Source: Escherichia coli (GTDB lineage Bacteria > Pseudomonadota > Gammaproteobacteria > Enterobacterales > Enterobacteriaceae). From it: a stretch of DNA of 64,000 nt. Shown here in pieces: positions 19,973 to 22,818 of the stretch. A program made the translations under genes and the position numbers. The notes below the pieces were generated by a model that saw only the letters and a list, made by a program, of their open reading frames with translations, made no database searches and had not been told where the DNA came from. Position 1 is the first letter of the stretch. Each line of letters opens with the position of its first letter. The DNA lies in assembly GCF_003334785.1 (NCBI RefSeq), contig NZ_QOWV01000017.1. One strand, given 5' to 3'.

Positions 19973-20668
19973 TCAACAATCCTCAATAATCAGATACACC
20001 GCTTTCACCGGGCCATGAACTCCGACGACTTTGATAAGCTCAATATCCGCCGTTGAACTGGGGCCGCTAATGATGTTAATGCAGGAAGGCATTCGTTCAC
20101 CGGCCTGCGCTTTCTGATGCAATTTTTCTGCGAGTTGCGCTACACGCGGCAGGATAGTGCTTTTACGCAGGATAAAAAGAGAATATTCCGGGAGCAGGCT
20201 CAATGAACGCCCGCGCTCGGCGGCGGAAAAAAGAACCACGCCTCCCGATTCGGTTAAACCATATTCAGCATACACAACACCCACTTTAGCCTGCTCTGCC
20301 TGCGAGATATTCTCGGCACCTTTCGCCGGATCCCAAACAACGGCATTGCATTCCTGCTGCAAACGTTCGCTAATCCCCAATTCCTCCAGCCTCGTGTCAC
20401 CGCTAATCACGACCGACTGATCTCCCAGCTCTTTACACAGACGTATTGCAGCTTCTGCCGCCTTCGCCTCGCTGGTCAGCTCACAGCGCGTCAACATAAC
20501 ATCGCTGGCAAACTGAATAAACGCGTCACAGCGCTGCTGTTGGTTAAGTTGGGTAAGCCGCTCGTTAGCATAGTTGTTAAGCGGCGCATCTTCTGCTTGC
20601 GGTTCAAGTCGCAGCGGGCGACCCAGTGCCTGAGCAACGTTATTCAAAAATTCGCCTCGATTATCCAT
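19973..20668 (-). CDS. ykgG: LutC-like lactate utilization protein (DUF162)
   Basis: Start set at MDNRGEF (231 aa); 8-nt overlap with ykgF. Confidence 0.85.
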   Translation of the reverse strand: MDNRGEFLNNVAQALGRPLRLEPQAEDAPLNNYANERLTQLNQQQRCDAFIQFASDVMLTRCELTSEAKAAEAAIRLCKELGDQSVVISGDTRLEELGISERLQQECNAVVWDPAKGAENISQAEQAKVGVVYAEYGLTESGGVVLFSAAERGRSLSLLPEYSLFILRKSTILPRVAQLAEKLHQKAQAGERMPSCINIISGPSSTADIELIKVVGVHGPVKAVYLIIEDC

Positions 20669-22088
20669 TCTTTTTCTCCTGCGCCTGATGTTTCTTAAAC
20701 CAACTACGGAAACTCTCTCCGTCAGCTTCAGGAAGATCGCGTGCTTCCATCCAGTCGCTAATCGCGCCAAATTTGAGTGGTGTTTTGCCGCCATTGATAA
20801 ACCAGCTTGCCGCATGAGCACCGGCCATCATCCCGACTTTCCACAATCCTGGATGACTATTGGCATAAGCGAACATTTTTATCGCCCGTTGCTCTGCTTT
20901 TGCGGTGATCCCTTTTTCAGCCATCACCCGACGATGACGCAAAATCAGTTTTGACAGCGGAATACGCACCGGACACACGTTGTCACAAGCTGTGCATAAA
21001 GAGCAGGCGTAGGGTAAATCTTTAAAATCTTTATAGCCGCCAAGTAGCGGAGAAATCACCGCACCAATTGGCCCTGGATAAATAGAGCCATATCCATGAC
21101 CGCCAATATGGCGATATGCCGGACAAGTATTCATACAAGCCCCGCAGCGAATACAGCGCAGCACATCCCGAAATTCAGAGGCCAGCACCTCAGAACGCCC
21201 GTTATCGACAATAACCAGATGAAACTCTTCAGGACCATCAACGTGCCCAGCTTCGCGCGGTCCTGTCAGCCAGGTGTTGTATCCCGTCAAACGTGCACCA
21301 ACGGCACTGCGCGCCAGCATGGTGATCAATACATCTACCTCGGCAAACGTGGGGGCAATACGCTCCATTCCCATCACTGCAATATGCGTTTTAGGCAGCG
21401 TGGTACACATTCGCGCATTACCTTCATTGGTCACCAGGCATACCGAACCGGTCTCTGCCACCGCGAAATTACAGCCGGTAATACCTATTTCAGCACTGAG
21501 GAAATCTTCGCGGATTTTTTGCCGGATGAATAAGGTCATCGCTTCAGGCGTTTCCGGCCCCTCATAGCCCAGACGTTCGTGTAGCACTCGACGGATCTGA
21601 TGGCGATCTTTATGAATTGCCGGGACCACAACATGAGATGGCGGATCTTGATCCAGCTGGAGAATATATTCACCCAGATCGGTTTCAATCACCTGAATGC
21701 CAGCATCCTGCAACACATGATTGACACCAATCTCTTCGGTCACCATCGATTTAGATTTCACCACCTTCCGGGCATTTTTGCGTTGGGCAACCTGTAAAAT
21801 GTAGCGGGTAGCGTCTTCTTTGGTTCTTGCAAAATAGACGTGACCGCCGTTTTGCGTCACTTTTTCTGAGAGCTGGTACAGATAAGCGTCGAGATTACTC
21901 AGAACATGATCACGTATCTGGGCGGCCCGATCGCGCCACTCCTCCCAGTGCCCCAATTCATCGACCATTTTTTGCCGATTTGCCCCAATACGCTGCTGCG
22001 CGTTTGCCACCGCTTTGCGCATGATCGGATCTTCAATTTGCTGACGGATGCGTGTCTTAAAATCTGTATTACTGGTTTTGATCGACAT
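20661..22088 (-). CDS. ykgF: LutB-like iron-sulfur protein
   Basis: 475 aa; two 4Fe-4S ferredoxin motifs CIRCGACMNTCP and CSLCTACDNVCP. Confidence 0.9.
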   Translation of the reverse strand: MSIKTSNTDFKTRIRQQIEDPIMRKAVANAQQRIGANRQKMVDELGHWEEWRDRAAQIRDHVLSNLDAYLYQLSEKVTQNGGHVYFARTKEDATRYILQVAQRKNARKVVKSKSMVTEEIGVNHVLQDAGIQVIETDLGEYILQLDQDPPSHVVVPAIHKDRHQIRRVLHERLGYEGPETPEAMTLFIRQKIREDFLSAEIGITGCNFAVAETGSVCLVTNEGNARMCTTLPKTHIAVMGMERIAPTFAEVDVLITMLARSAVGARLTGYNTWLTGPREAGHVDGPEEFHLVIVDNGRSEVLASEFRDVLRCIRCGACMNTCPAYRHIGGHGYGSIYPGPIGAVISPLLGGYKDFKDLPYACSLCTACDNVCPVRIPLSKLILRHRRVMAEKGITAKAEQRAIKMFAYANSHPGLWKVGMMAGAHAASWFINGGKTPLKFGAISDWMEARDLPEADGESFRSWFKKHQAQEKKNG

Positions 22089-22098
22089 CTTTATATCC

Positions 22099-22818
22099 TC
22101 AGCGGCTCATCAACACTTCAGCAATATGCATCACTTTGACTTTCTGCCCTTCCCGTTGTAATCGCCCACTGATGTTTAGCAGGCAACTCACGTCAGCACC
22201 AATTAAATACTCAGGGCGGACTTCCATCAGGTGCGCAACCTTTTCTTTCACCATCTCGCCGGATATTTCGGCCATTTTGACCGAGAACGTGCCGCCAAAT
22301 CCGCAGCAGGTATCCTGTTCAGCAAAGGTCAACAGCTCCAGTCCACGCACATTTTTCAGCAGCGTAAGTGGCTCGTCCTTCACTCCCAGCTTACGGGCCA
22401 GGCTACAAGATGGGTGATACACCGCTCTCCCTTGCAAACTGGCACCTACATCGACTACCCCTAATTTATTAACAATAAAAGAGGTGAGATCCTGCATACG
22501 CGCGGCAACCTTTGCGGCACGTGATGCCCATTCAGGTTCATCCGCCAGATACGTCGGGTAACTTTTTACGGCATAGGTGCAAGAGCCAGCCGGTGAAATA
22601 ATGGGATCGTCGTTATCCTCCAGTGCGGCGATCAGATTTTTCATCCCTGGAATCGCTTCTTTGATATAACCGCTATTGATCGCAGGCTGACCGCAGCATC
22701 CCTGTTTCTCCGGGAAATTTACGCGACAGCCGAGTTTTTCCAGTAGCAGCACGGAGTCTCGTGCCATTCTTGATTTCAGGGCGTCACCAATACAGGTGAC
22801 AAAGAAATTGACATTCAC
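22099..22818 (-). CDS. ykgE: LutA-like cysteine-rich (CCG-domain) oxidoreductase subunit
   Basis: 239 aa; CCG motifs QGCCGQP and TCCGFGG. Confidence 0.9.
   Translation of the reverse strand: MNVNFFVTCIGDALKSRMARDSVLLLEKLGCRVNFPEKQGCCGQPAINSGYIKEAIPGMKNLIAALEDNDDPIISPAGSCTYAVKSYPTYLADEPEWASRAAKVAARMQDLTSFIVNKLGVVDVGASLQGRAVYHPSCSLARKLGVKDEPLTLLKNVRGLELLTFAEQDTCCGFGGTFSVKMAEISGEMVKEKVAHLMEVRPEYLIGADVSCLLNISGRLQREGQKVKVMHIAEVLMSR

Follow-up and report, generated by a model that had tools for sequence, protein, structure and literature searches.

How the E. coli core genome came to hold a single iron-sulfur lactate dehydrogenase that stands apart from any permease or lactate regulator is the question raised by the ykgEFG genes. 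We analysed these genes in a window of 64,000 nucleotides (nt) of Escherichia coli contig NZ_QOWV01000017.1 (RefSeq assembly GCF_003334785.1). The 3.8 kb around ykgEFG are 100% identical to E. coli K-12, and MG1655 coordinates (x) were converted as window position = 344426 - x. The locus is the well-known ykgEFG operon, already known to encode a LutABC-type iron-sulfur (Fe-S) L-lactate dehydrogenase, and its family assignment, lactate phenotype, promoter and repressor have all been published before. The new elements are comparative only, namely the K-12 locus as the probable remnant of a module that still circulates intact, and its control region as the module's own. We put at roughly 0.85 the probability that ykgEFG encodes a three-subunit, soluble or peripheral Fe-S L-lactate dehydrogenase of the LutABC/LldEFG type, independent of nicotinamide adenine dinucleotide (NAD), and that it is transcribed and has evolved as proposed below.

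Family and function of the YkgEFG proteins

All three genes lie on the minus strand, and for each of them the open reading frame (ORF) and the RefSeq annotation agree. ykgE (lutA/lldE type, 22099-22818) encodes 239 aa from a GTG start, ykgF (lutB/lldF type, 20661-22088) 475 aa and ykgG (lutC/lldG type, 19973-20668) 231 aa. A gap of 10 nt separates ykgE from ykgF, while the ykgG start lies over the ykgF stop in an overlap of 8 nt, ATGGATAA (20661-20668), as had been noted in a first-pass annotation made from the sequence.

Pfam placed two CCG domains in YkgE (PF02754; residues 3-84 and 133-216, E 2e-16 and 5e-15), with cysteines at positions 9, 41, 42 and 80 and again at 138, 171, 172 and 212 (CC pairs 41/42 and 171/172). 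YkgF was observed to combine a LUD domain (LUD_dom, 72-294) with Fer4_8 (309-376) and LutB_C (386-468); the first cysteines of its two CxxCxxCxxxC motifs are residues 312 and 362, and it scored 778.7 bits against the curated LutB/LldF equivalog TIGR00273, for which the cut-off is 444.8. YkgG has a single LUD domain (PF02589, E 5.5e-30) and matched the LUD domain of Deinococcus LutC (PDB 2g40, E 2.5e-10); the NCBIfam search returned no equivalog for it. The CCG motifs, the two 4Fe-4S motifs with a DUF162-like region and the LutC-like third subunit described in the first-pass annotation were all recovered in this way. Neither a transmembrane segment nor a hydrophobic stretch of membrane-spanning length was found in YkgE, YkgF or YkgG.

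The genes are co-oriented neighbours in the LutABC/LldEFG order A (CCG), B (LUD plus Fe-S) and C (LUD), an order that was universal in 79 loci encoding YkgF relatives. Bacillus subtilis LutABC (yvfV-yvfW-yvbY) has the same three genes, order and Pfam architecture, and shares with ykgEFG a role in L-lactate utilisation according to the cited literature. Orthologues from Bacillales clusters beside lutR/lutP were 46-54% identical to YkgE, 55-59% to YkgF and 34-41% to YkgG. Together with the gene order, the Pfam domains and the TIGR00273 score, these values uphold the LutABC-type assignment. LldEFG of Shewanella oneidensis and of Campylobacter/Helicobacter is the same Gram-negative three-subunit NAD-independent L-lactate dehydrogenase, and has been named as a homologue of YkgEFG (PMC9701030, PMC4117512).

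No structure of a LutABC complex was found in the PDB, where YkgE has its nearest solved relative in HdrB, the Fe-S part of YkgF in HdrC and YkgG in 2g40. YkgE aligned across both CCG domains of HdrB, and the ferredoxin part of YkgF aligned to HdrC (PDB 5odc and relatives), the similarity being weak (E 1e-4 to 1e-5). The C...CC...C cysteines of YkgE are conserved relative to HdrB chains 5odc_B and 8rvu_b. However, HdrB follows a five-cysteine motif, CX31-39CCX35-36CXXC, with CxxC at its end, whereas the motifs of YkgE are C-x31-CC-x37-C and C-x32-CC-x39-C, and AGSC and DVSC replace the CNGC and CPFC of HdrB. YkgEFG further differs from HdrBC in having no HdrA-type flavoprotein partner and in its added LUD domains. 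Along the model of Desulfovibrio-type LdhH (NCBIfam NF045670, quinone L-lactate dehydrogenase large subunit), YkgF aligned to 2-464 and YkgE to 468-705. Since the two align in series, LdhH can be read as a LutB-LutA fusion whose parts are separate genes in E. coli; YkgF and YkgE both fall under the 800-bit cut-off of NF045670.

Judging from these domains, L-lactate would be oxidised to pyruvate at the LUD-domain part formed by the YkgF N-terminus and YkgG. The two ferredoxin-type [4Fe-4S] clusters in YkgF and the clusters in the CCG domains of YkgE, which may jointly form an HdrC/HdrB-like module, would then carry the electrons to the respiratory chain at the quinone pool. Membrane association of the enzyme would be peripheral, and lactate uptake would probably depend on LldP or GlcA, permeases whose genes are unlinked.

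It has been shown in the literature that YkgEFG matters for anaerobic nitrate respiration of E. coli on L-lactate. When ykgEFG was cleanly deleted in the mouse commensal strain MP1, the mutant was outcompeted by the wild type anaerobically with nitrate and L-lactate, but not with D-lactate (PMC9701030), so that essentially the lactate test suggested in the first-pass annotation had already given an L-lactate-specific fitness defect. The same result bears on a different view of the enzyme, in which its substrate is another small hydroxy-acid (2,4-dihydroxybutyrate, or one related to 3-hydroxypropionate or glycolate) and it serves a YieP-controlled organic-acid stress response. LldD already serves L-lactate in E. 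coli, the lactate role has been questioned in a B. subtilis annotation review, and a 2026 paper, citing earlier work, has 2,4-dihydroxybutyrate oxidised by lldD, dld and ykgEFG together. In addition yohJK, the 3-hydroxypropionate exporter, is likewise repressed by YieP, but 3-hydroxypropionate tolerance was unaltered by ykgEFG deletion (PMC7642389). The L-lactate specificity of the deletion defect also speaks against this view, as do the LctP genes adjacent to 50 of the 79 relatives and the complete module described below, which is physically joined to a lactate permease (above the TIGR00795 cut-off) and a D-lactate dehydrogenase. We regard a substrate other than L-lactate as unlikely.

Promoter, YieP operator and leader RNA

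Promoter mapping, also suggested in the first-pass annotation, had been carried out by Reg-Seq, which mutagenised 160 bp of the ykgE promoter and identified YieP by mass spectrometry, with confirmation by knockout (PMC7567609). YieP is a GntR/FadR-type repressor unlinked to ykgEFG (PMC7567609, PMC7642389), and ykgEFG messenger RNA (mRNA) rose about 10-fold when yieP was deleted from strain W or K-12 (PMC7642389). The Reg-Seq index was calibrated on the published YieP matrix, whose consensus NTTTGTCATACAAAN occupies indices 80-94, giving window position = 23029 - index. On this scale the strongest expression-lowering positions were indices 50-55 (TTGCAT) and 73-78 (GATTAT). They correspond to a sigma-70 promoter on the minus strand at 22951-22979, with the -35 element TTGCAT at 22974-22979, a 17-bp spacer and the -10 element GATTAT at 22951-22956; within the -10 the largest effects were at the second and sixth bases (A2, T6), as expected for sigma-70. 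By this plasmid-reporter footprint, transcription of ykgE from the TTGCAT-17-GATTAT promoter would start near 22944, leaving a 5' untranslated region of about 126 nt (22819-22944, minus strand) ahead of the gene. A consensus promoter scan had placed a -35 within the YieP box; this was rejected, since the Reg-Seq footprint puts RNA polymerase one turn upstream. In E. coli O157:H7 ATCC 43890 the -10 of ykgE reads GACTAT and not GATTAT (window 22954).

The YieP operator (22935-22949, minus strand) is a perfect palindrome, ATTTGTCATACAAAT, at about -5 to +10. Every base agrees with the YieP weight matrix from Reg-Seq, and the sequence fits the motif atTTGTaTGAcaAAT obtained by chromatin immunoprecipitation with exonuclease treatment (ChIP-exo; PMC7642389); the Reg-Seq authors term the ykgE site the strongest possible (PMC7567609). 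No other match with up to two mismatches was found in the 64 kb, and the box was invariant in Escherichia, Citrobacter and the plasmid and island copies described below. Its position suits repression by blocking of RNA polymerase, and the literature shows that YieP, bound at this palindrome over the presumed start site, represses ykgEFG about 10-fold. The perfect operator and the published response to yieP deletion together place ykgEFG in the YieP regulon.

Upstream of the -35 lies a conserved activator block, AAAATGTGAGCGATGCCGAAAGAAATAAAA (22987-23016, minus strand), in which a footprint appears in anaerobic growth only, peaking at indices 13-22 (23007-23016, AAAATGTGAG). The Reg-Seq authors assigned this site to FNR because it was seen in anaerobic growth only (PMC7567609). 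Read as GTGAG-CGAT-GCCGA, a 14-mer centred at about -61 (a class I position), it agrees with the FNR consensus TTGAT-N4-ATCAA at 5/10 positions; read as a CRP site, TGTGA-N6-CCGAA, it scores 7/10. A search of the window with the FNR consensus gave 338 matches at up to three mismatches and was dropped as too noisy. According to the literature ykgEFG is stimulated by anaerobiosis, acting through this conserved site, and YieP is additionally lowered through the small RNA FnrS, by which yieP translation is repressed (PMC11340327).

The control regions of K-12, three Citrobacter species and a divergent Escherichia labelled E. coli (L002; YkgF 96% identical) were aligned, and the mobile island sequence was compared with them. 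Four invariant or near-invariant blocks were observed, AAAATGTGAGCG-N-GCCGAAAGAAATAAA, TATTGCAT, GATTAT and TTTGTCATACAAAT, as well as a block around the ribosome-binding site; the activator block is near-invariant from Escherichia to Citrobacter and the island. The Shine-Dalgarno sequence GGAG (22827-22830, minus strand), 8 nt before the ykgE GTG, falls within ATGAAG-AATGGAGTA, which is conserved from Escherichia to Citrobacter. A four-codon upstream ORF, MGMK* (ATG GGC ATG AAG TAA; 22832-22846, minus strand), overlaps the ykgE ribosome-binding site with its stop; this stop is CAA in Citrobacter, so the ORF is probably due to chance and was rejected as a conserved element. On a wider scale, a YieP box upstream of lctP or ykgE was recovered from Escherichia, Citrobacter and Proteus and from the island and plasmid copies. 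Candidate boxes in Photobacterium and Aggregatibacter were doubtful, and none was seen in Pectobacterium, Dickeya, most Pasteurellaceae and Vibrionaceae. YieP control is thus lineage-restricted.

The spacer between ykgE and the rclR stop (22819-23344, 526 bp) has a guanine plus cytosine (GC) content of 0.33-0.37 against about 0.50 in the genes, in keeping with the AT-rich region of about 525 bp noted in the first-pass annotation. The CCCCC-N5-GGGGG hairpin reported there upstream of ykgE is likewise real, but it is not promoter DNA and lies in the transcribed leader. As RNA it reads UCCCCC-GGUGG-GGGGGA (22861-22877, minus strand), with a 6-bp G:C stem, a 5-nt loop and a folding energy of -12.6 kcal/mol, and would lie at about +68 to +84 of the transcript, 44 nt ahead of the ykgE GTG. 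On another view this element is an independent regulatory switch, acting as a transcription attenuator, as a protein-binding DNA palindrome or in translational control of ykgE. The DNA motif (22862-22876) occurs once in the 64 kb and none of 100 window shuffles held any match. Its stem is kept with changed loops in four other E. coli lineages, and in Citrobacter and the island its place is taken by a palindrome of unrelated sequence, GCTTGATAT..ATATCAAGC.

Other observations speak against such a switch. The stem is followed by AAACAUCGGGC and not by a U-run, and a terminator scan gave no hit there, so that the hairpin is not an intrinsic terminator or attenuator of the usual kind (GC-rich stem plus U-run). 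The predicted fold leaves the Shine-Dalgarno sequence free, neither the whole leader (z -0.44) nor the hairpin alone (z -1.15) argues for a switch, the leader being no more stable than its shuffles, and one E. coli lineage has a stem-disrupting G to A. Beyond the YieP site the Reg-Seq signal is small, over a stretch that reaches to window 22870 (+45 from the presumed start), within the hairpin, so that the 3' arm and all sequence farther downstream fall outside the coverage. We therefore consider a switch at the hairpin doubtful. The hairpin, which in L002 stands in a shifted register (AACCC-AGAA-GGGTT), is less conserved than the promoter blocks and probably occupies the site of an ancestral dld-ykgE intercistronic palindrome. 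Its role is most likely in mRNA stability or processing, not in termination.

The lctP-dld-ykgEFG module

The neighbours of the 79 YkgF-relative loci were counted within 2.5 kb of flank, three loci having too little flank. An LctP-family gene was adjacent in 50 (34 on the same strand just upstream and 16 divergent), and a GntR regulator in 22, all of them Bacillales; of the 76 evaluable relatives, 60 had an LctP and/or GntR neighbour and 16 had neither. When adjacent permeases from the plasmid/island copies, Pectobacterium and Aggregatibacter were scored against NCBIfam, 3/3 passed the curated LctP model TIGR00795. Bacillales clusters have the GntR regulator directly upstream and often a divergent lutP, and the LldEFG clusters of Shewanella, Campylobacter and Helicobacter keep a permease, and often dld, adjacent, whereas K-12 has none of these. 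In the annotated flanks of the window no permease or lactate regulator gene adjoins ykgEFG, whose neighbours are ykgH (membrane) and rclR, the regulator of the divergent rclABC. The absence of a linked regulator and permease noted in the first-pass annotation is therefore true of the locus, but the unlinked YieP acts as a dedicated-looking regulator. This protein is of FadR type and differs from Bacillales LutR; its candidacy as a LutR orthologue was rejected, a LutR-like protein scoring 163 bits on the LldR model and YieP 67. On comparison of the loci, the missing permease would be a derived state reached by gene loss and not a peculiarity of the enzyme family.

A complete module, with lctP divergent from dld-ykgE-ykgF-ykgG, was found on 184 plasmid records, mostly from Klebsiella, at about 84% DNA identity to K-12; one such plasmid, pFec10, has been described before (PMC7984374). 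The island lctP gene was present in 109 of 5426 complete E. coli genomes (about 2%), 91 times on the chromosome. The mobile island differs from K-12 in having LctP and Dld, with the promoter driving dld first. Its YkgE and YkgF are 94-95% and its YkgG 86% identical to those of K-12, and the 8-nt ykgF/ykgG overlap is the same. Ahead of dld, the island and plasmid copies carry the activator block, -35 element and YieP box seen in K-12.

Insertion sequence (IS) elements bound the complete module in the Klebsiella plasmid and in the two chromosomal copies looked at, with a truncated gene for a gluconate permease (gntP) at the end of both chromosomal islands. In Citrobacter a putative GntP-family permease gene, labelled from its translated N-terminus only, follows ykgG. 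The two observations together suggest that the module was captured from a Citrobacter-like chromosome. A HigB toxin gene and an ars cluster for arsenic resistance are found close to the Klebsiella plasmid copy and close to another plasmid copy, from E. coli, that has no lctP or dld; one island and this E. coli plasmid have a group II intron in the vicinity.

Citrobacter chromosomes provide an intermediate view of the locus, with lctP divergent and about 560-640 bp upstream of ykgE (tblastn). The K-12 spacer is homologous to that of one Citrobacter (L003) nearly up to the lctP start codon, a local-alignment score reached by 0/300 shuffles. The remainder of the spacer (23017-23344), AT-rich and with no gene annotated in K-12 MG1655, thus corresponds to the Citrobacter lctP-ykgE control region. 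In Citrobacter youngae and C. werkmanii the dld ribosome-binding region is fused to the last ~18 dld codons (NP.IGKTSK.K), and 0/1000 shuffles reached the score of either the 5' or the 3' relic. Because these fused relics are highly significant, we conclude that dld was deleted in both species. For the K-12 lineage the flanking conserved blocks and parsimony point to a loss of dld as well. Here the sequence CAGGGCAAAGATAA (23314-23327), 18-31 nt from the rclR stop, matches CAGGGCAAACATAA, the first codons of Citrobacter lctP on the reverse strand. The match, of 14 nt, is weak, being equalled by 16/1000 shuffles, and may be all that is left of the permease gene. By comparison, then, the K-12 locus would be a stripped-down lctP-dld-ykgEFG module, in which the permease and the D-lactate dehydrogenase were lost and the control region and three genes were kept under selection.

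A locus with neither permease, dld nor adjacent regulator, tightly repressed in laboratory conditions and without a deletion phenotype in gut models, might also be taken for a decaying and functionally irrelevant remnant. The ratio of non-synonymous to synonymous substitution rates (dN/dS) of ykgE, ykgF and ykgG, determined against the island, Citrobacter and L002, was however 0.03-0.08, with dS up to 1.2, and the ORFs are intact. All three genes are under strong purifying selection and are not decaying, which already contradicts that view. The ykgEFG region was moreover present in 5250 of the 5426 E. coli genomes, almost always as a single chromosomal copy, the promoter, operator and activator block do not vary between genera, and the deletion has a measurable phenotype in vitro. 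Functional irrelevance is thus very improbable.

Several points weigh against the reading of ykgEFG as an L-lactate dehydrogenase remnant of this module, with the transcription set out above. The literature searched contained no report of a purified E. coli YkgEFG enzyme, and its cofactors, electron acceptor and catalytic site are inferred. With four cysteines per CCG motif where HdrB has five, YkgE may carry a cluster of a different type. A ykgEFG deletion had no defect in mouse colitis models, where LldD dominates (PMC9701030), and ykgEFG overexpression left lactate titres unchanged. The transcription start is deduced from a plasmid-reporter footprint, and the upstream site fits poorly to FNR, its putative activator. 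Finally, no recognisable dld relic was found between the YieP box and the hairpin in K-12 and L002, where 869/1000 shuffles scored as well.

A more far-reaching proposal can be made only tentatively. YieP may be the trans-encoded sensor of the ancestral enterobacterial lctP-dld-ykgEFG module, with lactate, pyruvate or a close 2- or 3-hydroxy-acid as its ligand. The genome's strongest YieP operator would then have been kept in the stripped remnant, and the hairpin would be the functional descendant of a dld-ykgE stem-loop that sets ykgEFG mRNA stability.

Flanking features and significance

RefSeq annotation gives the gene order of the region as betB-betA-ykgH / ykgG-ykgF-ykgE / rclR / rclA-rclB-rclC. 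In L002, rclR is absent beside ykgE, which is adjoined instead (L002 1772-4759, against window 23345-26700) by three putative aldo/keto reductase genes and one putative LysR-type gene, both labels being taken from translated N-termini only. K-12 has an aldo/keto reductase pseudogene, ykgQ, alone and beyond rclC. From this difference in gene content beside ykgE, the rclRABC block looks like an insertion/deletion polymorphism at this junction. In E. coli strain EC2 an IS1 transposase lies inside the equivalent of 19700-23500, and the match falls into two pieces.

On the other side, ykgH (19062-19730) is GC-poor (0.31-0.42), encodes a protein with a strongly hydrophobic segment at its N-terminal end and matched no NCBIfam model. 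It has the look of a horizontally acquired gene without relation to ykgEFG; the annotation of E. coli O157:H7 ATCC 43890 gives it as a pseudogene interrupted by an internal stop. The spacer where ykgH and ykgG converge contains an inverted repeat (19826-19866) with 19-nt arms, 95% complementary, and a 3-nt loop. It is the sole copy in the window, has a T-run on neither side, and may be a bidirectional transcript-end or stability element.

A scan of 19000-24500 against Rfam at E up to 1 gave no family at its gathering score, and no known riboswitch or small RNA. A mir-338 match (24.9 bits against 57, E 0.16) was dismissed as spurious. It arose from a hairpin at 23134-23178 (minus strand; z -1.9), which lies about 170 nt beyond the rclR stop and has AUUUUUUU after it. 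The homologous stretch of Citrobacter, where rclR is not present, folds too (z -2.2).

The loss of lctP and dld from a larger module would explain the lone copy in the E. coli core genome, a comparative result of modest value, and intact modules under the same YieP-controlled promoter remain in circulation on plasmids and islands of Klebsiella and E. coli. YieP also controls membrane-lipid and organic-acid tolerance genes. Since its box belongs to a lactate module, lactate or pyruvate is a reasonable candidate for the ligand of YieP.

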